Under the pieces are notes generated by a model. That model had not been told where the DNA came from and did no database searches. It saw only the letters and a list, made by a program, of their open reading frames with translations. A program made the translations under genes and the position numbers. A stretch of DNA of 58,193 nucleotides from an uncultured Lachnospiraceae bacterium. Lineage in GTDB: Bacteria > Bacillota > Clostridia > Lachnospirales > Lachnospiraceae. Where the stretch lies: contig CAMQZX010000001.1 of assembly GCA_947039785.1 (NCBI GenBank), positions 1 to 58,193 on the forward strand, read 5' to 3'. Below are positions 1 to 43,395 of this stretch, in pieces (within the stretch, counting starts at the first letter, position 1; every line of letters begins with the position of its first letter).

Positions 1-3000
1 TCATCTTTTATCTCCAGCTCGTTATTGATTTCCTGCTGGCGGATTAGTTTTTGTTTCAACTCCGATTCATAGGGGAATTCTTTATTAAACTCCCTTTTAG
101 ATTCCTCCATATTTCTTTTGTACTCTTCCAGTTTTTCTTTATGTGCGGCAACTCTCTTTTCCAAACTCCCCAACAGGTTCTCCATACGGACCATATTTCC
201 GGAAGCACTGCTGCTCATATCTGCCGAATAAGTCAGTTCCCCACTCAGCTTTATGATACAGTCAGAATACTTTTTTTCTACCACTACATCAAACCCCTTA
301 TAGCTGCCCACCGTCCTGCTTTCCATACTTTCAAGGGAATGTGCCATCTCTAAGATAACGCTGCCCGCCGCCTCACGTTCATCATATCTAAGGCCGTTCA
401 GAGTAACGAAAAAGTCCGGCTCCATACAGAGTGCCTGGTCACGTTTCCTGATATCTTTTTCCATAGCATACAATCGGTTCTCAGTCTTCTTAATCAATTC
501 TGGATATTTGAAAAGGAAATTATCCTGATGGACATAGCGCTGGCTCTCATAGCTTGCCTTCAAGACCTGCAGACGCGAAACTTCCGTGTCTACCTCGGTT
601 TTTTCCATAATCATAGGATTCCCAGACGCAATTGCCTTGATTTCCGCAAAGGATAAAATGGTTTCGTCTACGTCCTGACATTCCCTTTCAACCGTTTTGT
701 CTGTCATTATCTGGCTGATAAACCTCTGCTTATTTTCTACAATCCCCCAGAGGTAACTGTCAAATGTCTTTTTCGTGATATAGCGGTATATATTGACTTC
801 TTCATTATCATTTCCCTGGCGTATGATACGCCCTTCCCTCTGCTCAATATCCGAAGGTTTCCACGGGCAATCAATGTGATGAGCCGCGACAAGGCGTTTT
901 TGGATATTGGTTCCTGTTCCCATCATGGACGTGCTTCCCAGGAGGATTCGTTTCCTGCCGCTCCTCATGTCTGCAAATAATTCCTCTTTCTGCTTATCAC
1001 TATGGGCATCATGAATAAATGCAATTTCATCTTCTGGTATTCCTTTCCTGATCAACTCCTGTTTCAGAAAGTCATATACATTAAATTTCTTGTTTCCTGT
1101 GGGCGTGCCAATATCGCAAAAGACAGCTTGTGTCCCCTTAAACTCCTGGGAACCAATGTATTCCTGATAAATATTCTCTGCCGCCTGAAAGAGTTTGCCG
1201 TCACCATCTACTTCCGCATCTGGGTCAATCAGCCGGGGATCGGTGCCGAGCAACCTTGCTTCGTTGGTGATCTTGAGCATGTTATCGACCGTTGGATCTA
1301 CATTCCCTGCTCGTATTGCTTCCGCGCGTTTAGCCAGTTCCTGCATCATGTACTCAACACTCTCAGACGCCACGCTCTCCACAATTTTGTATTTCCCACC
1401 TTTTAACTTAGGTACATTCAGGTTCAGCATTGAAGGCAATTGGATATCAGCCACCTCCCGGAACATATTCATAAGCTCCGGCAGATTACAGAATTTATTG
1501 AACCGGCTCCGCATTCGGTATCCGCCCTCTGGTGACATTTCAAGCGAAGTGGTAACTTCGCCAAAATTGGCCGCCCAACTGTCAAAATGGTCAATCCCCT
1601 TCTCATGTAGTTTCTGTGACTGCAGATACAACTGCATGACATACATTTCACACATGGTATTGGAGATAGGCGTCCCGGTTGCAAGGATAACATTTCTTCC
1701 TCCGGTCAGTTCCTGGATATACTGGATCTTTTGGAACATATCCATAGCCCGCTGGGAACCATTGGTGGAAATACCTGCCACATTACGGATTTTTGAAAAG
1801 ATAGACAGGTTTTTAAACACATGCGCTTCATCTACAAACAATGCATCTATCCCTAACTGTTCAAAATCCAGAACATCATCCTTTTTTGCATCATTTCTCA
1901 GACTTAAAATTTGGGATTCCAGATTTTTCCGTTGACGCTCCATATCTTTTATCCCCCATTTAGCCCCCTGCTCCTCCTTCATCTCCGCAATGGCCCCCGA
2001 AATTCGTTCCACCTGATTTTCAAGAATTTCCGCACGCCTTTCCGCAGACAGGGGAATTCTCTCAAATTGAGAGTGTCCCAAAATCACGGCATCATAATTA
2101 TTTGCAGCAATCCTACACGTCAGCTTTCTTCTATTTTCACTTTTAAAATCTTCTTTCGATGTCACAAGTAGATTGGCACTGGGATATAAGTGCAGGAATT
2201 CTGCCGCCATCTGCCCCACAAGATGATTCGGTACGACAATCATTGCTTTATGCATCAGCTTCAGCCGTTTCAACTCCATACAGATAGCCGCAATTTCATA
2301 GGTTTTTCCAGCCCCAACCGCATGGGCCAGCAAAGTGCTTCCATGCAGTGCCCGGTCTACAACATTCCGTTGATGGTCCCGCATATTTATTTCCGGATTC
2401 ATACCGGGGAACGATAAATAAGAACCGTCATAAACCCGCAGACGGTTATCATTGAAGTTCTGATTGTAAAAATCCACATATTTTTTTCTACGCTGCGGAT
2501 CTTTCCATATCCACTCCTTAAAAGCATCTTTTATGAGGGTTGCCTTTTCCCTTGCCAGAGTTGTTTCTTTCTGATTTACTACATACCGTTCACTGTCCCC
2601 AACTTCAATCTTATCTTTGACGGTAATTACATTCTGGTTCAGTAACGCCTCTATGATGGAATATGCATCAATCCTTTTTGTTCCATATGTCTGGCTTGCC
2701 GCCACAGACGAATAATCACTGGACTTATTCGTAACCTTATATGACATGGTATATCGGTTTAATTGTACCTTGATTGCATAAGTCCCGTCCCTGTACAACA
2801 CCGGCGTATTCAGTGTTTCATAGATAAATGCTTCGTAATCCTCCAGGTCAATCCAGGAAGTTCCCAGCTTCACAGTGATTTCCGTTGCTGTCAGATCCTC
2901 TGGCTGTACCGCTTTCAAAGCTTCTACGTTTACCATATAGATAGGATTATCTTTTGCATACACTTCTGCGGTCTTTAGTTTATTCCGGACTGGACCACTC

Positions 3001-6000
3001 AGATACTCACTTGCAGTCTCCCACCCCTGATTAGGGTTTCCATCAGCCGCTTTGACTGGGTTCAAAAATATCTGCCCTTTTAATTCCTGCAGGAGCCGTT
3101 CCCGTTCTACCGGATAGACACTCAGCATATAGGGGATATGTACCTGCCCATATTCCGCCAGGCTGACTTGCAGCGCGTCCATGGCTGTATCCACCTTCTC
3201 AACTATGGAAACTGGCGCAATAGTCTGTTTATAAAAGATATCCGCCTTCTTTATATTCTTGTTTTCATCTTCCGTTTCCAGGCTGCATAACAGATAGTAG
3301 TCATTGTCCTCCCGGAATGCTAATTTGTTGGCACGGCTGGACAGATATCCATACTTCTTTACATAAGGATCATAAATCTTATTCAGCTTTTCCTGTGCCT
3401 CAACAAGTTGGTCTGTACTGCACCCATGTGTCTGAATATCAATCAGGTATCTGACCGACTGCCGGATAGCATGCATTCCAAGGATACGATTCCGTTGCGT
3501 CTCGTTTCCCGACCATCTCACCATGATATCATTATCCCGGTAATAGATTTCTCCCTCTATGACTGTATATGTGTTATTTGCTACATCTAAGAGGGCAGGT
3601 ATGGTATTGGGGAGTTCTTCCTTGCTGTTTACATCAGGGAACAGCGTTTTTTCCTCTGCCGGAAGATAATCGGCTGATAGAAAAGAAATTGCATGATTCA
3701 ATTCTTCTTCAAAATCAAAATTCCCCTCATCTTCTACGATCAGTTCTGTATAATTAGAGTTTTGACCATAGGTATGCCTGTCAAAAGCCATCTTTCCCAG
3801 CATCATTTCCGGATGGTTCATATAATACTCATTGACCGGCACCCCATCATCGGTATAGGCGATGTTCATCCATTCCTCTGATTTATTTGTGGACAGTACA
3901 CTTCCCTTCTTTTGAAGGAAGATAATGTCAGATGTCACTTCTGCTCCCGCGTCCTTTTTGAAGGCAATCCCTGGCAGACGTACCGCGCCGATAAAGTCTG
4001 CACGCTCCGCCAAGTATTTTCGTATTGTGGAATTTACTTTGTCCATAGTGAACTTTGCCGTGACAACCGCAATGATTCCGCCAGGGCGAAGCAGGTCTAA
4101 GGATTTTGCTAAAAAATAGTCGTGAATGCGGAAACCATATTTTTTATATTCGGGATCAAAAATTTTGTACGCGCCGAAAGGAACATTTCCCACAATAACA
4201 TCAAAGCTGTCCTTTTCAAACTTCGTCTTTTCAAATCCCTTGACTTCAATTGCGGCATGAGGGTGAAGCTGTTTTGCGATCCTTCCGCTGATGCTGTCCA
4301 GTTCAACGCCATAAAGACGAGAATCCCGCATATTTTCCGGCAGGACACTATAAAAGTTCCCGACGCCCATACTGGGTTCCAAGATGGAACCATTTGTGAA
4401 CCCAAACTGTTCCAATGCTTTATAGATTGACTTAGCGACAACGGGCGGCGTGTAAAATGCGGAATTAATACTTCCCCTGGCCTGCTCATATTCTTCCTCT
4501 GTCAACAGCGTCTGCAGTTCCTGATACTCGTTTGTCCAGTTTGAACTTTTAGGATTGAATACATTAGCAAGACCTCCCCAGCCTATGTATTTGGCCAGGA
4601 TATCCTGCTCCTCTGGTGTAGCCGGACGGGAGGACTGTTCCAGTTCCTTTAACAAACGGATTGCCGCGACATTACTCTTATACTTTGTCTTGTCACCGGA
4701 AGGAATTTCCCATCCTTCAGGGTAAAAAAAATCCGAAACCTGAATGACGTTTTGGTTTCGGTTACTCATTTCCTTATATAATAGGAAGGTTTCCTCCGGG
4801 CATAAGGCAAATTCTTCTTTGCGTGCCGCTTCATATTCCCCTGGCGGCAGATACTCTCCCACATCAATGGCAGCCTGGATTGCATGCGATACTTCCTGCA
4901 TGGTAAAAGCCCCATGCCCTTCATTTTCTCCATTCACAAGGCGGAATTCAACGGCTCCACTTTCGCCATATGTGTAATGAATCAATCCCCAGCTTGTATT
5001 CAGCGCAGATTTTCCATAGTCCCGTTTCGACTGAACTTTCAAAATTTTTGAAAGAAATTCCTGCTTTTCTTTTTCCCCTGCCTGTTCAAAGAACCTTTGA
5101 ATCAATGGTTTGGAGGGAATCAATGCCATGGAATGAAGGGCATATGCATTTGCAGCCTCTTCAAATACTGCCTTTAACCGTTCACTTCTTCCATCAGCCT
5201 GGGTCTCCTGTATTTCTTCTCCTGTATCCTCTGTTCTTTTGTCATCTTTCTCAATTACGGTATCCGCACTTAAATATGGTATTGTTACTGCCGGTGTCTC
5301 GCCGGCCTGTTCTAATAACCCCTGGTATTGGGACGCCAGATTTTGAAACCAGGGAATTCTTTTAATTTCCTCTACAGAGAAATCCTGGCTGGATTCAGGA
5401 TATTGATCTAATTCGATTATCCGGGCCAGAATGTCCCGGATCACACGCCACGGATAGGTCTGCACCTCATTACCGTCAAAAGAACAAGTAACCTCTCCAG
5501 CATGGAAGGTCAGTGTTGAGGTAAATATCCAATCCACATCTGAACCAAGCAGGGAAAGGAAACTCTGCCGTATAAATTCGGTTTCCTGCTGGGGCAGTAA
5601 GTTTATGGTCATTACATCATAAATCATGTCAAATACTATCCTGCCATCTGCCGTTGCCAGAAAGTTTTCTACTGTTTCGGCCAATGATTCCGGTATTTCC
5701 GCGTCCTTTTTTATTGGCTGATAGTATTCCCCGCTTTCGATTAATAACAGGATTTCTTCTGCCGCTGTCTTAAATGTAAGATACCCGCTTAGATACTGTC
5801 CCTGCTCATGCCAGTATAACTGGATTCCCGTATCGTCTGTTTCATATTCAAATTCAAGCCCTTCACCAGTAATAATGGTGTCTCCACCTTCGTAAATCTG
5901 ATAAAGAAATTCGATACGCTCCCCTATCCCTTCATTTAACTCAAAGAAATCATAGATTTTTTTCTTTAGGATAGGTTCCAGCGCGCCTGCTAAAACCACT

Positions 6001-7205
6001 TCTCTGCATAATTCATCTGTCACTTCTACAGGCACTGGTTCAACAGAAAAAGAAGGAACCGCAACAGCAGTTCCTTCCTCTATATCAGTTTCTATTACCT
6101 CGGCTTGCAGATTACTTCCTGCATCACGGTTTCTTGGGCTATCATCGCTGCTTCGTTCCGAAGTCTGGTCATCTCCATCGTATCCGCTGGATTGATGTTC
6201 CTCTCCGCCGCTTTCATCCTCACGTAGTCCTCCACGATCTGGTCGTGCAGCTCCCATGCTTCCGCCTCTATCTGTTTCAGCAGCTCCGGCAGTTTGCCCG
6301 TCCGCAGCAACAGGCTGTACCGGCTTTCGTCCTTCTCCAGCAGGTATTCCTGTGCCAGCTTCGCGTATCTGCCCAGCATCTCCAGCCCTTCCGCCTGTTG
6401 GCTCCCTGTCTCCAGCATCGGGTACAGCAGCCCGTCCTTTTCTTTCCTGTAATTCAGTTCTACCATCTTGATTTCTCCTTTCATCTTCCCGGATCTCTTT
6501 CGCAATCTCTGCAAATCTCCGCAACGTCCTCTCTGCAATATCCGATATGAGGATACCTATTTTGGATAGTATCACCTCTTCCTGGTAGTTTGTTATTGCA
6601 GACAGTCCTATGTCAAAAGTATCAATCCCGCATCGCCTTAATACCAAGTATGCGGTGCTCTGCAGGATGAATTCTTCAACTGGTGACATTTGATTATCGT
6701 CCAATTCATCCTTGCTGGTAAGAACTGCTATTTCATGAATCCTGTCGTTTTCCTCTTCCATTATAGCACGTACATATGTTCTCGTAAAGTTTTTTATTGC
6801 TATCCTGAAATTATTTTCTTCCTGATATTGTTCTGGAAATAGCCTCTTTGCAAAAGCAGAAGCATTTTCTTCATTGATTTCCCATATCCAAGGCATAACC
6901 CTTCCGCCGGTGCTTTTGATATCATAGACATACTGCGCACCTCCCAGCATCTCAATGGGAAATGTTGCGATTCCAATCTCACCGCCCCTGACATAACGCT
7001 TTGCTTTCTTCCAGTCTGAAAATCCCAGGAGGATTTCTGCCTCCGGGTATTGTTCGTAAATGATACATGTATTCAAAAAGTCAAAACGATATAAATTCCC
7101 CCTGGCAGAAAACTCCAGATATTTTCTCCACTGTTCGCCGTCACGCGAGATATCAAAAATTGCAATATCATACAAATCTGATACCTTCATGGTGTGCTGA
7201 TCCAT
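1..7205 (-). CDS. Giant polyvalent conjugative-element protein: ArdC-N-like domain, long low-complexity linker, N6-adenine DNA methyltransferase, SNF2/DEAD-type helicase. The C-terminus runs off the window edge.
   Basis: Absent from the ORF track because no stop lies inside the window. Hand translation of the minus strand from ATG 7205-7203 stays open to position 1. That ATG sits 4 nt after the TGA of the upstream gene, and the SD GAAGGTGA overlaps the upstream gene's stop. Motifs read directly: FSARGNLYRFDFLNTCIIYEQYPEAEILLGFSDWKKAKRYVRGGEIGI (ArdC-N-like); MTase motif I ILEPSMGVGNF (~4355-4385); MTase motif IV GNVPFG (4173-4190); helicase motif I AHAVGAGKT (~2301-2327); DEAH (1821-1832); motif VI QREGRIIRQGN (~811-846). 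Confidence 0.85.
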   Translation of the reverse strand, partial: MDQHTMKVSDLYDIAIFDISRDGEQWRKYLEFSARGNLYRFDFLNTCIIYEQYPEAEILLGFSDWKKAKRYVRGGEIGIATFPIEMLGGAQYVYDIKSTGGRVMPWIWEINEENASAFAKRLFPEQYQEENNFRIAIKNFTRTYVRAIMEEENDRIHEIAVLTSKDELDDNQMSPVEEFILQSTAYLVLRRCGIDTFDIGLSAITNYQEEVILSKIGILISDIAERTLRRFAEIAKEIREDERRNQDGRTELQERKGRAAVPDAGDREPTGGRAGDAGQIREAGTGIPAGEGRKPVQPVAADGQTAGAAETDRGGSMGAARPDRGGLREDESGGEEHQSSGYDGDDQTSERSSDDSPRNRDAGSNLQAEVIETDIEEGTAVAVPSFSVEPVPVEVTDELCREVVLAGALEPILKKKIYDFFELNEGIGERIEFLYQIYEGGDTIITGEGLEFEYETDDTGIQLYWHEQGQYLSGYLTFKTAAEEILLLIESGEYYQPIKKDAEIPESLAETVENFLATADGRIVFDMIYDVMTINLLPQQETEFIRQSFLSLLGSDVDWIFTSTLTFHAGEVTCSFDGNEVQTYPWRVIRDILARIIELDQYPESSQDFSVEEIKRIPWFQNLASQYQGLLEQAGETPAVTIPYLSADTVIEKDDKRTEDTGEEIQETQADGRSERLKAVFEEAANAYALHSMALIPSKPLIQRFFEQAGEKEKQEFLSKILKVQSKRDYGKSALNTSWGLIHYTYGESGAVEFRLVNGENEGHGAFTMQEVSHAIQAAIDVGEYLPPGEYEAARKEEFALCPEETFLLYKEMSNRNQNVIQVSDFFYPEGWEIPSGDKTKYKSNVAAIRLLKELEQSSRPATPEEQDILAKYIGWGGLANVFNPKSSNWTNEYQELQTLLTEEEYEQARGSINSAFYTPPVVAKSIYKALEQFGFTNGSILEPSMGVGNFYSVLPENMRDSRLYGVELDSISGRIAKQLHPHAAIEVKGFEKTKFEKDSFDVIVGNVPFGAYKIFDPEYKKYGFRIHDYFLAKSLDLLRPGGIIAVVTAKFTMDKVNSTIRKYLAERADFIGAVRLPGIAFKKDAGAEVTSDIIFLQKKGSVLSTNKSEEWMNIAYTDDGVPVNEYYMNHPEMMLGKMAFDRHTYGQNSNYTELIVEDEGNFDFEEELNHAISFLSADYLPAEEKTLFPDVNSKEELPNTIPALLDVANNTYTVIEGEIYYRDNDIMVRWSGNETQRNRILGMHAIRQSVRYLIDIQTHGCSTDQLVEAQEKLNKIYDPYVKKYGYLSSRANKLAFREDNDYYLLCSLETEDENKNIKKADIFYKQTIAPVSIVEKVDTAMDALQVSLAEYGQVHIPYMLSVYPVERERLLQELKGQIFLNPVKAADGNPNQGWETASEYLSGPVRNKLKTAEVYAKDNPIYMVNVEALKAVQPEDLTATEITVKLGTSWIDLEDYEAFIYETLNTPVLYRDGTYAIKVQLNRYTMSYKVTNKSSDYSSVAASQTYGTKRIDAYSIIEALLNQNVITVKDKIEVGDSERYVVNQKETTLAREKATLIKDAFKEWIWKDPQRRKKYVDFYNQNFNDNRLRVYDGSYLSFPGMNPEINMRDHQRNVVDRALHGSTLLAHAVGAGKTYEIAAICMELKRLKLMHKAMIVVPNHLVGQMAAEFLHLYPSANLLVTSKEDFKSENRRKLTCRIAANNYDAVILGHSQFERIPLSAERRAEILENQVERISGAIAEMKEEQGAKWGIKDMERQRKNLESQILSLRNDAKKDDVLDFEQLGIDALFVDEAHVFKNLSIFSKIRNVAGISTNGSQRAMDMFQKIQYIQELTGGRNVILATGTPISNTMCEMYVMQLYLQSQKLHEKGIDHFDSWAANFGEVTTSLEMSPEGGYRMRSRFNKFCNLPELMNMFREVADIQLPSMLNLNVPKLKGGKYKIVESVASESVEYMMQELAKRAEAIRAGNVDPTVDNMLKITNEARLLGTDPRLIDPDAEVDGDGKLFQAAENIYQEYIGSQEFKGTQAVFCDIGTPTGNKKFNVYDFLKQELIRKGIPEDEIAFIHDAHSDKQKEELFADMRSGRKRILLGSTSMMGTGTNIQKRLVAAHHIDCPWKPSDIEQREGRIIRQGNDNEEVNIYRYITKKTFDSYLWGIVENKQRFISQIMTDKTVERECQDVDETILSFAEIKAIASGNPMIMEKTEVDTEVSRLQVLKASYESQRYVHQDNFLFKYPELIKKTENRLYAMEKDIRKRDQALCMEPDFFVTLNGLRYDEREAAGSVILEMAHSLESMESRTVGSYKGFDVVVEKKYSDCIIKLSGELTYSADMSSSASGNMVRMENLLGSLEKRVAAHKEKLEEYKRNMEESKREFNKEFPYESELKQKLIRQQEINNELEIKD
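6095..6466 (-). CDS. tnpV: TnpV-like small protein (123 aa), nested out of frame inside the giant ORF
   Basis: The ORF track lists 6095..6538. An internal ATG at 6466 is preceded by AAAGGAG with an 8-nt spacer. The product (MVELNYRKEKDGLLYPMLE..LGRYAKLAQEYLLEKDESRYSLLLRTGKLPELLKQIEAEAWEL..NPADTMEMTRLRNEAAMIAQETVMQEVI) follows the motif order I remember for the transposon TnpV family. Family assignment is from memory, not from a search. Confidence 0.55.
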   Translation of the reverse strand: MVELNYRKEKDGLLYPMLETGSQQAEGLEMLGRYAKLAQEYLLEKDESRYSLLLRTGKLPELLKQIEAEAWELHDQIVEDYVRMKAAERNINPADTMEMTRLRNEAAMIAQETVMQEVICKPR

Positions 7206-21952: not shown

Positions 21953-22830
21953 TTAAGATTCTTGATGGCCGGTCAGTTGTTCGCGTATTTCACGCATTTG
22001 TCCGGCACTTTTATCTGATTTAAAGTAAGTCAATATATCCTGGTAGGAAAGACCTCCTACCAATCCAAGACGTATTTCTTCTAACTGCTCTAATGTATAA
22101 TCATTATTTATTAGCATTTCATTAAACTGCTCTTCTGTAATCTGTCCCAAATCCTGCTTTTCTATATTCTCGATTTCAGTTATTTTGCGGTTCTTTTTCA
22201 GTTCATCTTCTGAAAATATCTTTGCCGGCATATCAGGTTCCTGCAATGATAGCAATTCGTCCAGTGTTATTTCATCTATCTGAACATTCAGCCCCTGGTT
22301 CCTCTGGCGTTCATAATATTCAAAAGACTGCCGGTTCAGCAATTCGCAGGTTGGCACTGTACTTTTCTCACGGATTGGTGTATGATGATATGGTGGTGCG
22401 CCGCCATCAAACGTCTCCTTGAAAAGAGGATGCGCCGGGGTATTGTATTTTGAATCTACAATCGGGTCAAATCCCCGGATAAAGATCAGGCACTTTTTAT
22501 TATCCAGCTTTCTGGCCTCATCCGGTGTCAGTAGTTCCCTTCCCAGCACATCAAAGTTTCGGCTGCTGCTGCCATTTTTTCCTCTTGTTTCACCAGAACT
22601 CCGCTTATCTACCGTAGCCTTCCCGAGCATCTTAGAAATATAATCGTGTGTACTCTGTTCATTCCCGCCAAGGTAGACCAAAGTGTCACAGTTCCCTGGG
22701 ATGACCTCCCATGTCTTTTCAAACAATGCTTTAATCTGCGCAAGGTTCTGTATAATAATGATCGATGAAATTTCTCGTGACCTCATGGTACTAAGTAAAC
22801 CGCAATAATCATCCGGTAATGCAAATGGCA
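21953..22830 (-). CDS. T4SS coupling protein (VirD4/TraG family), exon 2
   Basis: The ORF track lists 21953..22903, whose first ~24 codons are intron domain V/VI sequence. From 22830 the frame reads (V)PFALPDDYCGLLSTMRSREISSIIIIQNLAQIKALF, the canonical continuation after the DEFAN Walker B region. Confidence 0.8.
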
Positions 22831-23623
22831 ATAGGTAAACCTCTGGCACTGCCGCCTCGGGTTTTTCCCCTGCCCCGCACCGTGCATGATAGTTTCCCAT
22901 CACACGGCGCTCCCCCGACTAAGAACATAATCTCTTAGTATCGGCTTGAGGCTATCCCTCCACCGCTTATTATCACGGTTTCCCTGGTACTGTGCCTCTA
23001 CTCTCACAACCACTAATGCACTTATTATAGAAGTTTTTCTCCCCCTTCCTTTTCGCTGCAACTACGGTACTTTGTCGCTGATACAGTCAGCTCCCGTATT
23101 GGCTGCTTTCCACGTTCCACATAACTTAGGATTGCTACCACTTAGGCCGCTCCTTTAGCCCTGCAAGCATTATCTTCAAGGTAAATCCTCAAGATACCTA
23201 TACCCTATAAGCACAGAAGGCATTTCATACTAACAAATTTTACTTTGCCCCGCCTGCGTACCCCTGGTACACCTGCATTTCTACAGGCTATTTGTTTAGA
23301 GCCGTACATTCGGAACTTTGTCAGACCTCCTTTGGGTCATTCTAGCCATATGGCAGCCCCACCCGCACTGTCACACACAACTCATACCTCTATGAATCTT
23401 TCCTCGCCTTTCAGCGTTAGGGTGTGCTTCGCACGACTTCCCCGCGCTTATAACCCCAACCATCTGTATCTGGCTGACGCTACGTGGAGTATCAGTGAAT
23501 CCCCTTCCGGGCGTTACCCCATCATTTGAGATTTCAGTTATGCAGTTCTCCAAAGCCATTCATGGCTTTAGGCTGCGGTTTTGTCGGTTATTTCCACCGT
23601 TTTGGACGCAGAACGTGTCACAC
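22831..23623 (-). mobile_element. ORF-less group II intron (793 nt) interrupting the coupling-protein gene
   Basis: The 5' end is GUGUGACACG. A domain V-like 36-nt hairpin lies at 22877-22912: GAGCGCCGUGUGAUGG-GAAA-CUAUCAUGCACGGUGC, with an AGC triad, a GAAA loop and a 2-nt bulge. It sits 46 nt from a 3' end ...UUUACCUAU. Removing the segment restores the frame (AAT G|TG CCA = N V P). No reverse-transcriptase ORF is present. Boundaries are +/- a few nt. Confidence 0.75.
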
Positions 23624-24860
23624 CATTAGCAAACTCATCAAGCATAAAGGCCACATGGATTGGTAATCTTCCTTCGTAAATAAAGTCAGCCTGGAAGTAC
23701 AGTTCCTGGAATATCTGGCTGTAAAGCAGCCCTACAATGCTGTTGAACGATTTATCGGAATCCGGAATCACACAAAAAAGAGCTGTTTTTGTCTTTCCAT
23801 CACCATTTCTTCCCACCCCTATCTCCGGGATATTGATATCATCATGGTCCAGGATACGGAGGATTTGTGGATTTTCCAAAAAAGCCAGTCTGGAATTTGC
23901 ACTGATAACAATACTCCGGACCGTATCAGCCGCTCCTCTGATTACTTTATAATACTGTTTGACTGCTGGATGATTGCTGCCCTTTTTACGCTCCAGGCGC
24001 TTAATCCTGCGGTCTAAGTCCGATGGCGAGCCATCATCACGTACCTCTGCTTCTCCCAGTAATTTCAGTACCGTGGAAAAGTTCTGTTCACTTTTGGGGC
24101 ATTCCAGCCAAACATAGTAGAACAGCGCCTGCAGGTATAGCGACTCTGCTTTCTCCCAGAAGGGATCGCTGCTCTGGGAGTTTTTCGGGGTTGTATTGGC
24201 GATCAGGTTTGTAATTAATTTTACGACATCTGATTCCTTCCGGATATACATAAATGGATTATAGCAGTCAGACTCTTCCATGTTCAGCAGATTCAGGACT
24301 TTGACAACATAACCGTGTTTCTGTAAGAATCCCCCGCAGGCTTTTAAAATTTCCCCTTTCGGGTCAGTGATTATATAAGAAGAACGGTTAAGCTGTAACA
24401 AATTAGGCTTACAAAAGAAGAAACTCTTTCCCGCTCCACTTCCCCCGATGACCAAAGTATTCAAGTTCAGCTTCGTTTTACGCGAATCCATCCTCATACG
24501 GACATTTTGGCTTAGTATGCGGTTCTCTGTCTCGTCCTTCTCGGCTAACACCTGATTCACCTGTTTGATATCTGCAAATTTGGCTGTACCATATTCTTTT
24601 CCCGGCATATAGTTTTTTCTGCTGGTCAGATACATGGCAATCGCAATCATATATACGAATTCTGCTAGTAATATCCCCTTAAAAGTTGTATCATTGAAGT
24701 AATTTCCAAATGGGCGGGCCATAACCATGTTAAGACGCTCCATAAAGGTATTGATATCAATCCCCTGTTCCCAGATGCCATTAAGAAGATACCCGCCATA
24801 TGCCGCCAGCACACCACCAAGTACAATCAGCCAGACAGAAGTTTTTTTCTTATTTTCCAT
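23624..24860 (-). CDS. T4SS coupling protein (VirD4/TraG family), exon 1
   Basis: The ORF track lists 23568..24860. N-terminal TM segments, Walker A VIGGSGAGKSFF, and a Walker B region HVAFMLDEFAN. After this the listed ORF runs into the intron and stops. Confidence 0.85.
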
Positions 24861-34988: not shown

Positions 34989-36503
34989 TCATTGACGGTT
35001 CCCATAAAATCGTTCCAGTGCTTTCTCGAAGGCACCTATCCCGGAAAAAAAGCTTCCTATCTTTACATCTTCAAACAGGTAAGGCATAGCGCTATATAAA
35101 GCTTCAAAAATACTGGTTAAGACATTCACTACAATCGAATTTCCTGCCTGCTTATATGCCTGGCTGTTACTGATGCCCGCTTCCAGGACCTTCTGGTAAT
35201 CTTCATCATCAAAACCCATCAGCCTGAAGCACTCTAATGGTGTAAGCCGCCTGATACGAAGGATTGATTCCAGCCTGCACAGGGAATTTCCCTGCGCAGT
35301 GATTGTCGGGCAGATGGTCCCATGTCCCTGTACCCGGCCCCGTTTTCCGGCAGCATTCGGATAGGCGATATTTACAACTCCCTCTGCCATACATTCCTCG
35401 TAGCCTTTTACGGTGTCCTGCCGCACCAGAATGATGTTATCCTTCTGTACGGAGGTAATCGCATAGCTGCACCAAGGCTTATCCTTTAGTTCCAGGTGCT
35501 GTTCGACTCTTCCCTCTTCATTATATCTTCCACGGATTGCCCCCACTTGCAAAATCTTTGTCTGGTCGTGGCTCGCAAGCTGGGTATTGGCAGTTCCCAT
35601 CCCTGATAGTATAACACTCTGTTGGGAATTTCCAATACTTCCGACCACGGCTATTTTATTTCTTCCGGCACCGCTTGCCAGCAAAGTAGGGCTGGAACCG
35701 ATTGCAGAGTATACCCTGCCAGTCTGGGGATCGCCAAGATACCCCTGAACCTGTCCAACTTTATACAGTTTATTTTCCCACTGTTTCAGTTCCTCTTCCC
35801 CAGGCATATACAGAAGCGCTTTCCGCTCCTTCATGTCTGTAATCAGTTTCTGCACTTTATCATCTGACAGATAATATTTCTCATCTACCTCATCTTCAAG
35901 GATATCCATCAGCCGCCTCCCGTTTTCCATTGGCTCTGGGAATACGAATTTTCCATTATCACATTCCTTTTTAATCAGGACGAGGTATACCCGTTCCCGG
36001 TTTTGCGGAATCCCATAATTTTTCGCGTTCAATATCTTCCAATAGGTGTTGTATCCATATTCCTGCAATTCCTGCTCAAATAGACGGAATGTGCTGTTTA
36101 GAAACCTTGCCTGAACAATATTTTTTACATTCTCATAAATTCCAAACATCGGCTTTACTTCCCGGATAACCCGAAGCCACTCTACAAGGAGAGAGGACCT
36201 TGTTTTATCCAGATTCTTTGAGCCGCATTTTTCACAAAAATCCCGTTTGCTCCAATGTACCTGCAGCGGGTTTACCTCATGCCCGCAATCTCTGCACCTC
36301 CAGACGGAACCGGCCAGCTTCCCACTTAGGGAGAAATCCTGACACGGGCTTCCACCGCAGATAAAGTTGAAATAAGGTAGCTTTTTCTCATCAACTTTCG
36401 TAATATCCCCAAGGTTGGCACTCTCGTCAACCCCATGTATGGCGCAATAACTTTTTACTGCATATTTGTCAAACTCACAAAAATTTATTAATTTATAATC
36501 CAA
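34989..36503 (-). CDS. dcm: DNA (cytosine-5)-methyltransferase with an inserted CxxC...CxxC zinc-ribbon
   Basis: ORF track (TTG start). Motif I region FCEFDKYA, motif IV GGSPCQDFS, motif VI ENVKNI, motif VIII QNRERVY. The insertion WRCRDCGHEV...FCEKCG lies between motifs IV and VI. Confidence 0.85.
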   Translation of the reverse strand: MDYKLINFCEFDKYAVKSYCAIHGVDESANLGDITKVDEKKLPYFNFICGGSPCQDFSLSGKLAGSVWRCRDCGHEVNPLQVHWSKRDFCEKCGSKNLDKTRSSLLVEWLRVIREVKPMFGIYENVKNIVQARFLNSTFRLFEQELQEYGYNTYWKILNAKNYGIPQNRERVYLVLIKKECDNGKFVFPEPMENGRRLMDILEDEVDEKYYLSDDKVQKLITDMKERKALLYMPGEEELKQWENKLYKVGQVQGYLGDPQTGRVYSAIGSSPTLLASGAGRNKIAVVGSIGNSQQSVILSGMGTANTQLASHDQTKILQVGAIRGRYNEEGRVEQHLELKDKPWCSYAITSVQKDNIILVRQDTVKGYEECMAEGVVNIAYPNAAGKRGRVQGHGTICPTITAQGNSLCRLESILRIRRLTPLECFRLMGFDDEDYQKVLEAGISNSQAYKQAGNSIVVNVLTSIFEALYSAMPYLFEDVKIGSFFSGIGAFEKALERFYGNRQ

Positions 36504-36686: not shown

Positions 36687-37592
36687 TTATCTTGCCTTAT
36701 GTCTCGTTTTTTTCTCTATCTGTGCCGCCGGTTGGATTGCAAGGCTTTCGGCATCAAACTGGAACACCATATTAGAGACCTGGACAGGGAACACTTCTGC
36801 TCTTTTATCCATCTCATTGCTCTTTTTTACTATTTCCTGCAAAGTTTCCAAACTGTGTCCTGATATTGGACAGACAAGGATTTTATCATTTGATAACGGC
36901 ATAACATACAGGTCATCATCCAAACGCCTTGAGATTTCACTCAAACCCTCGGGATAGAACATGATTGCAATCCCATTCTCGCTGTACACCCCGTAATAGT
37001 CTTTTGTGTCTGGAAGCGCCCCGCTTAATGCCCCTAATGTATGAGCCAGAACAGCTCTGCTCGTATCCAAAACCGTCTGAAAGCGTTCATTCATATCGAA
37101 ATATTTGACTTTATCAAATAATTCCTGTACCGTAAGTCCCCACTGCTTTAAATGTTCATTTTGGACAGGTCTTTTATAATCCAGAGGCCACTGTTCATCC
37201 TCGTCATAGACTTCATCAAAGAACTGAAAATATACAGCCATATCCCCAACAGGCAGATATGGTATATCATTCCCTTCCAGCTTTTCGGCTGCCTTTTCAA
37301 AATTAGCCGCCCAAATCGTAACATTTTCTAACTGCTCAATCGTTTCAATAGCACGCTTTTTTTCAAAATAATCGCAGATACTGCTTACCTGGGCCGTTAA
37401 TTCGCCTTCTTTCCACTGTCTATATAAGCTATGGATTGACAATGACTGGCTACACACAGGCGGCTGCATAAGTTCAAGGGCTATTTCCTCATTGTCCGTA
37501 CCTTCTGCTATTACTATCAATCTCTGATGCTCTTCATCAATGTGACGCCCAAGTTCTGTAATCAGTCCCTGTTTATATTCTTCATATGTCAT
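36687..37592 (-). CDS. Paralogue P8 of the eight-gene ~300-aa family (subfamily C, closest to P4)
   Basis: ORF track. Family motifs: GNDIPYLPVGDMAVYFQF, NEHLKQWGLTVQELF, YGVYSENGIAIMFYPE, LYVMPLS. Basic tail KKTRHKAR. Confidence 0.65.
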   Translation of the reverse strand: MTYEEYKQGLITELGRHIDEEHQRLIVIAEGTDNEEIALELMQPPVCSQSLSIHSLYRQWKEGELTAQVSSICDYFEKKRAIETIEQLENVTIWAANFEKAAEKLEGNDIPYLPVGDMAVYFQFFDEVYDEDEQWPLDYKRPVQNEHLKQWGLTVQELFDKVKYFDMNERFQTVLDTSRAVLAHTLGALSGALPDTKDYYGVYSENGIAIMFYPEGLSEISRRLDDDLYVMPLSNDKILVCPISGHSLETLQEIVKKSNEMDKRAEVFPVQVSNMVFQFDAESLAIQPAAQIEKKTRHKAR

Positions 37593-38530
37593 TCATTTAC
37601 ACCCTTCAACCATTCGCGTATGGTCAGCAATTTGTTCTTGTTCTCCGATGGTGAATAGTGGAAACCATGACTTGATATGGCATACCCAGCCAAGCTGTGT
37701 CGAACCTGACGGTTCCCATTCTTGTGGACATCTTCAATGGAAAATGCTGGTGCCAGTGCTCCCATAGTATCAGGCAGGATATAAGCCTCCCTCTCTGAAT
37801 ATGGCAAAATATAAAAGCTATCCGGCATCAGGCGGCTAAGTTCCTGTAAGGTATCCCAGTATAATACACTTGCCGCTCCTCCAGGTCCCGTGACCACATA
37901 ACCAAGGCTATCCTCTGCCTCTCCATTGTTCAGACAGCACGAAATACCTTCCAGCACGTTTTCAATCTTCTCACACAACGGATAGATTTTGCTCTCCATG
38001 GATACCAGCGAATGTTCCAGTACAAAATTATGAAAATCACTTTTTCTCATTTTCCAGGATGCCAGATGTTTATTGGTTACTTCTGCCTGATAATAACGCC
38101 CGTCTCCCAGCGGTGCGTGAAACATATAGTAGAGCACCATGTCCCCCATAACCTGGTAAGGCATATCATTCTTTTTCAGGGCTTCCAGGTCACTTCTATG
38201 GTTTGCGGCATATACTGCCACATATTCCGGCTGTTCCAACTGGCCTACTGCAATACGCAGATCTTCCGCTTCCGCATCAGAGAACACTTCCATCGCCCGG
38301 TCTGCCAATTCCTCTTCCCAGGTGTCAAACATCTCCGCTCTCAAAAAAGCCTCCCTTACCGGAATGACGGGGCAGTACCGCCCCTCCTGCTCAAATAAAA
38401 TTGTGATTCCCTCGGTCGGGAGACCCCTAGCCACCGTTCTAACTTCCCCGCGAATTGCGGAATCCTCAAAAGCGGAACGAATACATTGCTGGTAAGCATC
38501 TGAAAACTGTTTATATAATTTGAGGTTCAT
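37589..38530 (-). CDS. Paralogue P7 (subfamily A, closest to P1)
   Basis: The ORF track lists 37589..38596; ATG 38530 is preferred (AAGGAG 10 nt upstream). Motifs: RYCPVIPV, NDMPYQVMGDMVLYYMF, VTNKHLASW, VTGPGGAASVLYW, FYILPYS. Confidence 0.65.
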   Translation of the reverse strand: MNLKLYKQFSDAYQQCIRSAFEDSAIRGEVRTVARGLPTEGITILFEQEGRYCPVIPVREAFLRAEMFDTWEEELADRAMEVFSDAEAEDLRIAVGQLEQPEYVAVYAANHRSDLEALKKNDMPYQVMGDMVLYYMFHAPLGDGRYYQAEVTNKHLASWKMRKSDFHNFVLEHSLVSMESKIYPLCEKIENVLEGISCCLNNGEAEDSLGYVVTGPGGAASVLYWDTLQELSRLMPDSFYILPYSEREAYILPDTMGALAPAFSIEDVHKNGNRQVRHSLAGYAISSHGFHYSPSENKNKLLTIREWLKGVNE

Positions 38531-38592
38531 ATTCTTATCTCCTTTATGATTAAATGAAAAAAGCAGGTTCTTTTCTGAATCGCTCTGAAAAG

Positions 38593-39525
38593 TCACCTGC
38601 TATGGTTTTTATTCACTTTTGGCTTCTGCCGCATCCTTTGACTTGTTTTACGGATCTCATCTGTTTTCCGGCTATAAACATAAATATAATCGGATAAATC
38701 TTTTTCCCTCTGCTGAAAACCATTTTGTTTAGAGTCGTAGAGGGTTTCCTGAATCCATTTTCTTCCGTCCCTGTTTTTATTTGATAATGCCACGCATTGA
38801 TTGATACTTGTAGGAAATAGTATCATATCGCCACCCAGTTTATCTGACAGCTCGTGTACTTTTTCTTTGTATAAAAAAGCAGAAGCACCCCAGTAAAAGC
38901 TCTCTGTTGTCATAATGTAGATATCCTTCTTTTCCGGTTCTGTCCCAAACGGTTCCACGGAAACAGCCCTTTGATTTTCCGGATTATCAAGCGACCACTG
39001 ATAAAGGGTATCAAAATCCATTCCAAACTCATTCAGCATTTCACTTGTCACTCTTAAATTAAGGTGCATATCTTCAAGCAAACAATCTGTTGAATGATAA
39101 ATAATCCTCAATACAATGGCAAGGTCCCCGTCTCCATATAGCTTATGTGGGAAATTGTCCAATACCTCTTGATTTCTTTTCGCGTTCATCAATGTCGGAA
39201 CTACTAGATTTGGCGATAACACCCCCATCTCTTTAAATGCGGCTTTGGTGATCCGGTCATCCCGCAATAAAAACTCTAGCGAATTCCTGACTACCAGCCA
39301 CAGGGGTTCTCCCAACTGTGTATGACGGTTATATGCTACAAAAGGAAATATTTCTGAGCCTTTCTCTGGGCTGCCCTGTAAACTGATCACACAGCCATCC
39401 GAAATATGGTCAGGCAGCACCACCTTCCACCCTAATCCCATCTTTTGTAAATTATTGTTTAATTCATATACAAAGGTTTCATAAAATTCCCTTTTCTCTA
39501 TGATTGAATATCTATCGTTTCTCAA
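38593..39525 (-). CDS. Paralogue P6 (subfamily D, closest to P5)
   Basis: ORF track (TTG start). Motifs: VVPTLMNAKRNQEVL, DLAIVLRIIY, VTSEMLNEFGMDFDTLY, WGASAFLYKE, ILFPTS. Tail KVNKNHSR. Confidence 0.6.
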   Translation of the reverse strand: MRNDRYSIIEKREFYETFVYELNNNLQKMGLGWKVVLPDHISDGCVISLQGSPEKGSEIFPFVAYNRHTQLGEPLWLVVRNSLEFLLRDDRITKAAFKEMGVLSPNLVVPTLMNAKRNQEVLDNFPHKLYGDGDLAIVLRIIYHSTDCLLEDMHLNLRVTSEMLNEFGMDFDTLYQWSLDNPENQRAVSVEPFGTEPEKKDIYIMTTESFYWGASAFLYKEKVHELSDKLGGDMILFPTSINQCVALSNKNRDGRKWIQETLYDSKQNGFQQREKDLSDYIYVYSRKTDEIRKTSQRMRQKPKVNKNHSR

Positions 39526-39534
39526 ACCCTCCCC

Positions 39535-40440
39535 CTATCTGCCTCGTTTTTTCGTTTCTTTTAACTGGCTGGGAGTAATCATACGAAACTGTGCGGTTTC
39601 ACAATTATAGTGGTATAGATTCCCAGACAGGGGCTTTATACTTCCAGTGATTACCTCTTTACTACTGTGTAGTGCATTAGATATATAATCTATGCCCTTT
39701 TGGTCTAAAAGCGGCATTGCCAAAAAATGGTCAACGCTCATAGGAACCAATAAGATATCATCCCCCATAGTTTCTGCAAGTTCATACATTCTGGTTTTGT
39801 AAAGAATACCTGCAGCGCCTAAATGTTGACCAGTATTCGTTACCACATAGAAGGGAGGTAAATCCTCTACTGTTTCATCGGGTGATATAATATCTATCAT
39901 CTTGTGCAACTCTATCATCTGTACAGACTCAACATTCCTCGGATTATCCAGGGCCATTTGATAAAGTTCATCATACCTCAGCCCCCATCCCTGTAAGATA
40001 TCGTCTGTTACCACAAGGTTGAGATTGATACCGCCCAGGGACTGATATGCAATTTGAAGTATAACTGCTAAATCTTCAAACCTTGAATATGGAACGGTTT
40101 TCAATAGTTCCTCATTTTCCTCTGTGTTCATAAAAGTGGGAATTACCATATCTGCATGAAAAAGCCCCATATCCATCAGTGCACATTTTGTGCTCTCATC
40201 ATCAAAGAAATCCTGTGTTGCTTTCCGTGCAGCGACTCCCCAGGGCATCCCCTGCAAAAACTCCTGGTAATAATCGTGAACTTTAATCGGAGGAAAATCA
40301 TGCCCTCCACCATGGATTACCACCAAAACTTCTTCTCTGCCGCCTGTGTTCTCATACTTAGCCCGCCATGGAACACCCAGCATTTTTAAATTATAGTTGA
40401 CTTCATGGGTAAAAAACTGGATGAATTCTTCATATTCCAT
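39535..40440 (-). CDS. Paralogue P5 (subfamily D)
   Basis: ORF track (SD AAGGAGG). Motifs: VIPTFMNTEENEELL, DLAVILQIAY, VTDDILQGWGLRYDELY, LGAAGILYKT, ILLVPMS. Tail KETKKRGR. Confidence 0.65.
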   Translation of the reverse strand: MEYEEFIQFFTHEVNYNLKMLGVPWRAKYENTGGREEVLVVIHGGGHDFPPIKVHDYYQEFLQGMPWGVAARKATQDFFDDESTKCALMDMGLFHADMVIPTFMNTEENEELLKTVPYSRFEDLAVILQIAYQSLGGINLNLVVTDDILQGWGLRYDELYQMALDNPRNVESVQMIELHKMIDIISPDETVEDLPPFYVVTNTGQHLGAAGILYKTRMYELAETMGDDILLVPMSVDHFLAMPLLDQKGIDYISNALHSSKEVITGSIKPLSGNLYHYNCETAQFRMITPSQLKETKKRGR

Positions 40441-40463
40441 CTTTGTCTGTCCTCCTTGAGATT

Positions 40464-41429
40464 TTATCTGCTTTGCTTTTTACCGACCAGTGTTTTCTCA
40501 TGATTCATAGTTGTCTCCAATTTCTGATCAATGACAGCCTGTAATTGTTCTATACCACCCTTGAGCCTGTAAAACTTCCCCTCTGTATACGAATAAACCT
40601 GCCTGGACAAAAATAACCGCGCGTCCGTATCCTCCGTATACTCCCGGATTTTTCTTTGTACCCACATATCCTGTATACGGCTTTCCGGTAATATGGCCGC
40701 TTTTCGTTCTGAATACGGTACGATTATGACCCGCTCATGAAAAGCCTCTTCAAATTGACGCAGCACTTCGGGGTAAAGTATCGCCCCGGCACCGTTCAAT
40801 CCATACAGCTCATATGGCGCATTGTAGATATCTTCTGCTCTTGCAATCACAGGTATATGGCCAAAATCATATGGTTGAAGGCTTTCCACCCAGTCATAAG
40901 CACAGGCACCGATTTTCTGTGCCTCGCATTGCCTAACAATATTGAATAATTCTTCGGCTGAAAACTTCCATTTTAGGAGATGGTCTTTTGTTACAATACT
41001 TTCCATTGTACCGCCGAAAGGCAGCTCATAATCAAACCTGAAATATACTGCCATGTCACCTACTGCCAAATATGGTATACCCTTACCCCGCAGGATTTCT
41101 TTGCTTTTCTCAAAGTTTGTTACACAGGCTAAAACACTTTCTATGCATTCCACCTGTTCTCTTTGTACTGTACCAAACTCCCGGAAACAATCCAATGTAT
41201 CCTTCACAATAGAAAACATTGGTCTAGCATTTTTGCAATAATCCGAATAAATTTCCTGAAGGTCTATGCAATGACAGATTTTATCGCCTAAATCCAGGGT
41301 TGCCTTTTCCAGCGATAACCCTTCCCCTATCACGACCGGTCTGATGGAATAACCATGCTGGTCTAAAAGTTCTGCTATTTTTTGTAGATAAGCAACCTTA
41401 AATTGGTCATAGTTTATTAAGTTCATCAA
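40464..41429 (-). CDS. Paralogue P4 (subfamily C)
   Basis: ORF track. Motifs: GKGIPYLAVGDMAVYFRF, VTKDHLLKWKFSAEELF, YGLNGAGAILYPE, VIIVPYS. Tail VGKKQSR. The start is either TTG 41429 or ATG 41426. Confidence 0.65.
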   Translation of the reverse strand: MMNLINYDQFKVAYLQKIAELLDQHGYSIRPVVIGEGLSLEKATLDLGDKICHCIDLQEIYSDYCKNARPMFSIVKDTLDCFREFGTVQREQVECIESVLACVTNFEKSKEILRGKGIPYLAVGDMAVYFRFDYELPFGGTMESIVTKDHLLKWKFSAEELFNIVRQCEAQKIGACAYDWVESLQPYDFGHIPVIARAEDIYNAPYELYGLNGAGAILYPEVLRQFEEAFHERVIIVPYSERKAAILPESRIQDMWVQRKIREYTEDTDARLFLSRQVYSYTEGKFYRLKGGIEQLQAVIDQKLETTMNHEKTLVGKKQSR

Positions 41430-41446
41430 TCCACTAACCCACCTAC

Positions 41447-42391: not shown

Positions 42392-42441
42392 CTATCTCCT
42401 TCCCTTCTGGCCGTCTGCGCTTCTCCCGATTAAAGCGGTTT

Positions 42442-43335: not shown

Positions 43336-43395
43336 TTTGGTTCTCCTCTTCGTCTATTTACCATTTCCTGCATCTGTAGACTCCCGTACCGACTC

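Follow-up and report, generated by a model that had tools for sequence, protein, structure and literature searches.

A tnpV gene nested out of frame in the linker of a giant polyvalent-protein gene on a Lachnospiraceae conjugative element

A gene embedded in the +1 frame of another, with both products made, is known from phages, as in Rz/Rz1 of phage lambda and the nested genes of phiX174; the lambda spanin genes are functionally related, and the phiX174 type belongs to extremely compact genomes. The comS gene has its own ribosome-binding site in another frame of the same strand, and its transcription is tied to a large operon; it has 46 codons, is confined to the Bacillus subtilis group, overlaps a catalytically constrained module of a nonribosomal peptide synthetase (NRPS) and looks like the younger gene. 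This small gene is nested in srfAB of B. subtilis (PMC12915044). TnpV has been treated in papers as the product of a stand-alone transposon gene and postulated to be Xis-like, and the tnpV of Tn4451-type elements indeed stands alone, adjoining a large serine recombinase (PMC3158075). Here we analyse a 58,193-nucleotide stretch of DNA from an uncultured Lachnospiraceae bacterium (contig CAMQZX010000001.1 of assembly GCA_947039785.1; the window, below, means this whole stretch), in which a tnpV gene lies out of frame within the inter-domain linker of a giant polyvalent-protein gene. We conclude that window positions 6095-6466 on the minus strand are very probably a real and ancient case of dual coding, passed on together with the giant gene ever since the family arose.

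The giant open reading frame (ORF) occupies 1-7205 of the minus strand. It begins with an ATG at 7205 and its translation contains no stop in 2401 codons down to window position 1, as the sequence-only reading that preceded our analysis had stated; the 3' end lies past the window start, and the true length exceeds 2401 codons. A complete homologue in Enterocloster clostridioformis (locus L001) is 96% identical and has 2421 amino acids (aa); its ORF, too, runs through the nested tnpV. Downstream of the N-terminal domain of the giant protein (N-domain), the +1 frame holds tnpV (6095-6466, minus), which consists of 123 codons and a TAA at 6097-6095 and starts with an ATG at 6466-6464; the automatic ORF list gives a longer, TTG-start form of the nested ORF (6095-6538). 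The Shine-Dalgarno (SD) sequence AAAGGAG at 6475-6481 (minus), 8 nucleotides (nt) upstream of this ATG, can be read directly in the sequence, as had been described, and the giant frame reads it as part of E-R-R. The nested product, assigned to TnpV at first from the order of its motifs, matched Pfam PF14198 (TnpV) over profile positions 3-111 of 111 with an E-value of 8.7e-20 and 71.2 bits (cut-off 27), which confirmed the assignment; the same profile was matched by 26 of 26 diverse TnpV relatives, nested or stand-alone. The nearest database TnpV is 94% identical, comes from Enterocloster clostridioformis and carries the NCBI name 'TnpV protein'. The peptides of the nested frame include the N-terminal MVELNYR, LAQEYLLEK and NINPADTMEMTR, and the AlphaFold model of TnpV is mostly helical, with a pLDDT of 85-92 for residues 30-120. 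In size, the window TnpV (123 aa) falls within the 111-124 aa of 49 non-redundant nested homologues.

Read one base earlier, the tnpV DNA supplies the giant frame with an overprinted linker of 125 codons (6093-6467, minus; DGRTELQERKGRAAVPDAGD...DAGSNLQAEVI), the peptide of which includes AAVPDAGDREPTGGR. This linker had been called R/G/D-rich, and indeed R, G, D, E, P, S and T make up 65% of the giant-frame product of the overlap; hydrophobic residues account for 12.6% of it, compared with 35% in the N-domain. From this low hydrophobic content, the linker looks like a disordered spacer.

The two frames are bound together by a simple rule. Giant-frame codons start at coordinates congruent to 2 modulo 3 and tnpV codons at those congruent to 1, and each giant codon is made of the third base of one tnpV codon and the first two bases of the next. 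Because of this offset, a giant-frame stop can arise only where a tnpV codon of the type NNT is followed by AA, AG or GA. In the window, 4 of the 123 tnpV codons end in T (0.033), compared with 0.285 in the remaining giant ORF, and none of the four stands in a stop-creating context, so that the phase rule noticed earlier holds. The G+C content reaches 0.57-0.60 over 6150-6450, compared with ~0.40-0.45 in the flanks (0.556 compared with 0.433 by gene), in line with the earlier impression of a G+C-rich interval; we attribute the excess to the avoidance of T-ending codons that keeps the giant frame free of stops.

This avoidance was compared with chance in the 49 non-redundant nested genes (below ~90% similarity), each tnpV codon being redrawn with the codon frequencies found elsewhere in its giant ORF and the TnpV protein held fixed. 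The window tnpV acquired a mean of 7.85 giant-frame stops, and the frame was open in 0 of 2000 trials. Over the 49 genes, 3.2-16.2 stops were expected (mean 7.8) and the probability of an open frame averaged 0.003, with a maximum of 0.03. The giant frame is nevertheless open in every one of the 49 real genes, including AT-rich ones in which 10-16 stops are expected. T-ending codons make up 9.9% of these tnpV genes, compared with 28.5% elsewhere in the giant gene; their frequency is 21.7% where the next codon does not begin with AA, AG or GA and 0 of 1212 where it does (Fisher P = 2e-104). Seven stand-alone tnpV genes served as controls: three are second copies from the collected loci and four lie on plasmids. 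In these genes the -1 frame has 3-14 stops (3-6 in those of similar composition) and T3 is 0.16-0.38. A further candidate control, on a Cohnella plasmid where only a 'TnpV protein' is annotated (L102), was dropped: it is nested in an unlisted giant ORF.

The nested layout is widespread. With a profile of the N-domain only, run over contigs of one genome per species, we collected 80 loci from other species, with N-domains 25-31% identical to that of the window, in Paenibacillus, Clostridium, Lachnospiraceae, Oscillospiraceae, Butyrivibrio, Christensenella and others. TnpV was sought in their three forward frames with a hidden Markov model (HMM) built from four TnpV sequences. A complete TnpV homologue follows just downstream of the N-domain in 71 of the 80 loci, and two more are cut at the contig end; the remaining seven meet a contig end, or an interruption near one, before tnpV could appear. 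All 71 complete genes lie in the +1 frame relative to the N-domain, start with ATG and leave the giant frame with zero stops, the third frame having 7-25. More broadly, neither frame has a stop across the overlap in 84 of 84 loci, the third frame again having 7-25. In 46 of the 71 loci the N-domain ORF is complete, with 2015-3142 aa, and in 20 it runs off the contig. A sample independent of the N-domain came from IMG/VR, scanned with a degenerate DNA pattern that covers GDYLIPDL, a motif of TnpV. It returned 39 matches, 25 of them chance matches without TnpV; in all 14 with TnpV, the gene lies nested within a giant ORF that has the N-domain upstream. A tblastn search of plasmids with the window TnpV found 11 records, from Clostridium botulinum, C. 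perfringens, Listeria, Enterococcus faecalis and Bacillus. Every match lies inside an annotated coding sequence (CDS), named 'SNF2-related protein', 'helicase SNF2' or 'helicase-related protein' in ten cases and 'pentapeptide repeat-containing protein' in one, and tnpV itself is annotated in none. The earlier suspicion that the nested frame is general was thus borne out, and so was that of dual coding, since nesting, phase and SD-ATG are the same in all 71 informative loci.

The two frames evolve very differently. In codon alignments, differences are most frequent at tnpV position 3, followed by position 1 and then position 2, at every level of divergence. Amino acid identity is always higher in the TnpV frame than in the giant frame: 0.83 compared with 0.67 at 80-90% nt identity, 0.41 compared with 0.26 at 50-60%, and 0.72 compared with 0.50 in another example. 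OLGenie-style counts over 219 pairs at 3-25% divergence gave a dN/dS of ~0.26 for TnpV (dNN/dSN) and ~1.06 for the giant frame (dNN/dNS); as uncorrected pairwise counts from non-independent pairs, these values are indicative rather than exact. TnpV is thus the constrained protein, and the R/G/D/S-rich linker varies freely as long as it is free of stops. The few linker columns that are conserved coincide with conserved columns of TnpV, as in GTDLH..GRLP beneath ELTY..GDYL, and such linker motifs are shadows of TnpV. The R/G/D-rich linkers that had been attributed to homologous giant proteins are indeed present, as the shadow of tnpV.

Taken together, we propose that both frames are maintained by selection, with a probability of about 0.85; our confidence that both are translated exactly as outlined here is somewhat lower. 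In the giant frame, a hydrophilic, sequence-unconstrained linker of ~125 residues joins the ArdC-N-like N-domain to the methylase-SNF2 helicase body, and the +1 frame encodes TnpV, a conserved and mostly helical protein of 111-124 aa. Ribosomes starting at 7205 would read through the tnpV DNA and make the fused giant protein, and TnpV would be produced by internal initiation on the same mRNA. Selection on the giant frame acts solely against stops, excluding T-ending tnpV codons before AA, AG or GA. The overlap would tie both the transcription and the inheritance of tnpV to the giant gene.

Several observations weigh against this proposal. The translation of TnpV and of the giant protein is deduced from sequence. 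Among the 71 loci with a complete tnpV, five have an N-domain ORF that ends 721-1459 aa past tnpV. In L007 and L008, which belong to a lineage 82% identical in DNA and keep both frames open through the whole overlap, the giant ORF ends 41 nt past tnpV, at the contig end. In four further loci (L009-L012), the equivalent of window 5962-6442 is missing, a loss of 481 nt that takes most of tnpV and 134 nt downstream. These loci keep the SD, the ATG and the first codons of tnpV, and for this reason we regard them as carrying a secondary 481-nt deletion and not an empty site; the methylase-helicase gene of their element is fragmented, the element adjoins an NRPS cluster, and the N-domain persists as a 262-aa ORF on at least 45 contigs. 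In L013, a single in-frame stop separates the N-domain from tnpV, and gene calling there gives an ORF of 2017 aa from an ATG within tnpV, in the frame of the N-domain. The fused state is therefore not obligatory in every copy. The 49 genes also share descent, so that their per-locus probabilities cannot simply be multiplied, although most locus pairs are below 60% nt identity and their synonymous positions have turned over many times despite this kinship. Finally, a sequence search of TnpV against the PDB gave nothing meaningful and no solved homologue, and a Foldseek search of its AlphaFold model against the PDB gave a best E-value of 0.77 and no fold assignment.

Two of these cases call for a further remark. 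In L007 (10109-10188) and L008, homology to the window ends exactly at the tnpV stop and the contigs break within 100 nt, which suggests a repeat or an inserted element at the break point. L013 was considered as the ancestral state of three separate genes and rejected: its N-domain and downstream ORF share a frame, and its giant frame is free of stops across tnpV. On these grounds a single nonsense change is the better description of L013.

How TnpV is started bears on an improbable alternative, programmed +1 frameshifting, in which a fusion of N-domain and TnpV of ~365 aa would be made and the SD-like element would act as a prfB-like stimulator. It is true that tnpV follows directly after the N-domain in the +1 frame and that a strong internal SD-like sequence is conserved. 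The details are those of an initiation site, however. The tnpV ATG is invariant in 84 of 84 loci, and an SD 5-mer (AGGAG, AGGGG or GGAGG) lies within 20 nt upstream of it in 44 of the 49 non-redundant genes. In 40 of these 44 the distance to the ATG is 8 or 11 nt, an initiation spacing; the same 5-mers precede 1.7% of the other ATG triplets in the same giant ORFs. Among the 71 loci with a complete tnpV, the SD is nearly always of the GAAAGGAG type. Most lineages have a tnpV-frame stop 3-30 nt upstream of the ATG, in several cases one codon before it, which leaves no room for a shift site and excludes fusion through a frameshift further upstream. Database hybrids of N-domain and TnpV (P0012, P0017 and P0002, with P0026 in a distant lineage) would speak for frameshifting, but they are set apart by one-base deletions whose positions vary, and each stems from a single short metagenome contig, which makes them look like assembly errors or pseudogenes. 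Separately, we observed that the close chimeras P0002, P0011, P0012 and P0017 and the distant P0026/L014 all begin as giant-frame sequence and continue in the TnpV frame from variable points onward, each being explained by one deleted base in a short metagenome contig. Because both frames are open, indels in the overlap give long, plausible 'proteins' and not truncations.

Internal initiation on the giant mRNA would be the most economical reading for tnpV, to judge from these signals. In the predicted RNA fold, the SD-ATG site of the window is unpaired, and RNA structure around it does not exceed chance (z = -0.58). A sigma-70-like promoter match (TTTACG, 17 nt, TG-TATAAT; 10/12) lies within the N-domain coding region at 6788-6760 (minus), ~300 nt upstream of the tnpV ATG. 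tnpV could get a transcript of its own from this match; in the region, promoter-like matches are no commoner than in shuffled sequence.

Gene calls might instead suggest three ordinary genes wrongly joined into one, namely the N-domain, tnpV and a methylase-helicase starting at an internal GTG or ATG after tnpV. We consider this quite improbable. In its favour, the calls in L001 and L104-L107 consist of tnpV and a protein of ~2000 aa starting past tnpV, and L013 has its stop after the N-domain followed by the 2017-aa ORF. In L001 the called protein has 2031 aa and starts at a GTG past tnpV, and the N-domain is left uncalled. Such calls follow from the rules of gene callers against long overlaps, which leave a conserved N-domain without a call, and RefSeq plasmid records call the whole giant ORF. 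In L013, one nonsense codon separates two ORFs of the same frame. Where there is no stop, ribosomes from the N-domain ATG must read through, and the selection that keeps the frame open would be pointless unless read-through mattered. The nested gene had been described as possibly unannotated, and this was correct in part: some records list the giant gene alone, whereas others list tnpV and truncate or drop the giant gene.

A recent capture of a cassette, in which tnpV was inserted into a tolerant linker as a stop-free segment with a length that is a multiple of three and the overlap is a local accident, had been offered as the other explanation and is very improbable. The tnpV segment is richer in G+C than its flanks, tnpV is also a mobile stand-alone gene on many plasmids and transposons, and the giant snf2-type genes of integrative and conjugative elements (ICEs) are reported integration hot spots for TnpV-bearing elements (PMC9815147, PMC12942858). 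The G+C excess, however, follows from T-ending codon avoidance, and a recent insertion does not account for a nesting, a phase and an SD-ATG that agree across all 71 informative loci, with N-domains that are 25-31% identical to that of the window. Pairwise identities of TnpV co-vary with those of the N-domain (Pearson 0.93, Spearman 0.83) and are of similar size, which argues for co-evolution inside one gene since the ancestor of the family and against repeated or recent capture. Among the homologues examined, moreover, no 'empty' linker free of tnpV was found; the only relatives without tnpV are L009-L012, with their deletion. Least probable of all is mere chance or composition, in which a G+C-rich, low-complexity linker or a G/C-ending tnpV leaves the other frame open and only one frame is read: off-frame ORFs are common in G+C-rich DNA and the probability of an open frame reaches 0.01-0.03 in the most G+C-rich relatives, but the AT-rich genes are open too, T-ending codons are normal except exactly where a stop would form, stand-alone tnpV genes of similar composition carry stops, and the nested frame matches a curated family with a dN/dS of 0.26.

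With dual coding as the preferred explanation, the direction of the event can be considered. The TnpV family has more than 7900 clusters, many of them stand-alone, including Tn4451-type genes beside large serine recombinases. We infer that tnpV is the older coding frame, because it belongs to a large family with many stand-alone members and is the folded, selected frame; the reverse direction is less probable. The probable origin would be an extension of the N-domain frame through a pre-existing tnpV into the downstream gene, as TnpV is structured and selected and the linker is neutral. A large serine recombinase occurs within the fetched flanks (up to 9 kb per side) of 1 of the 80 related loci, and the stand-alone tnpV genes in L100, L101, L108 and L141 adjoin one. 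We also observed second, stand-alone copies of tnpV at or just past the end of the giant ORF in L037 (17682-18035), L055 (16397-16771), L071 (16514-16888), L111 (8983-9318), L108 and L141, with a large serine recombinase in the same locus in L037, L108 and L141. The second copy of L055 is 100% identical to one on resistance plasmids of Campylobacter, Enterococcus and Salmonella. Such copies at the ends of giant ORFs fit the reports of integration hot spots cited above.

What TnpV does can be approached through leads at present. Searches found no family for it in NCBIfam, nothing in PADLOC and, in PHROGs, a single matching family of no assigned function. The leads are a role as accessory to the large serine recombinases that adjoin stand-alone copies, or as partner of the giant protein. 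Tentatively, and with less than even confidence, we suggest that tnpV in the linker forms an ancient, functionally coupled two-protein unit of conjugative plasmids and ICEs of Bacillota. TnpV might be made inside the giant mRNA and act with the giant anti-restriction/helicase protein, or couple excision of the element to transfer-operon expression; nested genes might make up much of the TnpV Pfam family, and the linker would have arisen from an existing gene read in a second frame. If true, this would be overprinting that fuses two proteins rather than invents a new one.

The domains of the giant protein were assigned with Pfam. An Eco57I-type N6-adenine methylase motif region lies at 3999-4241 (minus; aa 989-1069; PF07669, E 9.7e-8), an SNF2-related/ResIII helicase N-lobe at 1803-2390 (minus; aa 1606-1801; PF00176, E 5e-9; PF04851, E 2e-8) and a helicase C-terminal domain at 813-1055 (minus; aa 2051-2131; PF00271, E 6e-9). 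These matches bear out the methylase and helicase motifs that the sequence-only reading had placed in the giant frame, and the presence of the Eco57I methylase, SNF2/ResIII and Helicase_C in a single ORF of a mobile element marks the product as a polyvalent protein. The N-terminal, ArdC-N-like domain at 6471-7205 (minus; aa 1-245) belongs to a conserved family, with 1541 representative clusters matched at E <= 1e-3. Of the 150 clusters listed, nearly all have a match that starts within a few residues of the first residue of the protein. The ArdC-N label given to it earlier is only weakly supported by its profile scores: the window N-domain gave a sub-threshold match to Pfam ArdcN of 15.8 bits (E 0.017; gathering score 22.6). 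Three of four family members scored 15.8-18.7 bits (E 0.002-0.017), two of three distant homologues gave sub-threshold matches to the same part of the profile, and a profile search of the N-domain against the PDB found no match.

The same strand of the window also encodes a relaxase, a VirD4-type coupling protein, a VirB4/TraG-like ATPase and an NlpC/P60 hydrolase, and by these surroundings the giant gene is the last, within the window, of a run of conjugative-transfer genes, at its promoter-distal end. Other features of the element were observed in passing. A C-5 cytosine DNA methylase is encoded at 34989-36503 (minus), and in relatives a nucleotidyltransferase/HEPN pair lies upstream of the transfer genes (in L001, L002, L003 and L007, upstream of the NlpC/P60 gene); both are candidates for further anti-restriction or toxin-antitoxin cargo. 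The VirD4-type coupling-protein gene is in two ORFs, 23568-24860 and 21953-22903 (minus), one matching positions 31-313 of the Pfam T4SS-DNA_transf profile and the other positions 324-441 together with TraG-D_C. The halves are separated by ~665 nt with no long ORF, in which Rfam detected group II intron D1-D4 at 23352-23550 (152.6 bits) and domains 5-6 at 22825-22912 (58.7 bits). Window 22825-23550 (minus) is thus an ORF-less group II intron within an essential transfer gene. At 36687-44310 (minus), eight successive ORFs of ~300-335 aa resemble mutual paralogues, with the common motifs GDMAVYFQF and YG(V/L)NG.GA.(L/F)YP; this array precedes a 334-aa ORF at 44334-45338.

Long same-strand nested genes conserved over great distances are rare and often disputed in bacteria. 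The tnpV case combines a recognisable family, dozens of deeply diverged copies and clean frame-specific statistics, and it may serve as a natural model of how DNA can be shared. It also illustrates an unusual route of gene fusion, in which an inter-domain linker is another gene read out of frame under the sole rule of 'no stop codons'. For annotation, it means that pipelines that forbid long overlaps either drop tnpV, or call tnpV, truncate the giant protein and lose the N-domain, and that linker motifs such as GTDLH..GRLP should not be taken as functional motifs of the giant protein. For TnpV itself, it offers a testable context: single-base changes can abolish either product and leave the other unaltered. 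We found no report of nested tnpV in the full-text literature open to search, subscription-only papers lying outside that scope. The polyvalent-protein survey of Iyer et al. 2017 (PMC5512222) has zero mentions of TnpV, overlaps, frameshifts or linkers and uses 'reading frame' once, in an unrelated passage; the linker between the domains is not known to have been described as a second coding sequence.

Compared with the systems described at the outset, the window locus resembles the polyvalent proteins (PMC5512222) in that one protein of a conjugation cluster joins an N6-adenine methylase to an SNF2 helicase, together with a putative ArdC-N-like domain. Its nested product is homologous to the TnpV of Tn4451/Tn4453 (PF14198), with the same length and a full-length HMM match; the window copy differs in being nested, and 79 of the 80 related loci are without a recombinase within 9 kb, which leaves the homology unaffected. 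Like Rz/Rz1 and the phiX174 genes, tnpV is fully embedded in the +1 frame on a mobile genome. The host gene here, however, spans at least 7 kb on conjugative elements of tens of kb or more (58 kb in the window alone), and a functional link between its two products is hypothetical. The closest likeness in layout is that to comS and srfAB: tnpV too is small, has start signals of its own and lies entirely within a huge gene for a multidomain protein in a Gram-positive lineage. Unlike comS, tnpV has 111-124 codons, belongs to a large Pfam family and is conserved in both Bacilli and Clostridia; here the constraint lies on the nested frame, and the host frame is neutral. The overlap is a case of nested overlapping genes, and it differs from the known ones in the long gene of a recognised family, in its conservation across two classes of Bacillota and in the neutrality of the host frame.

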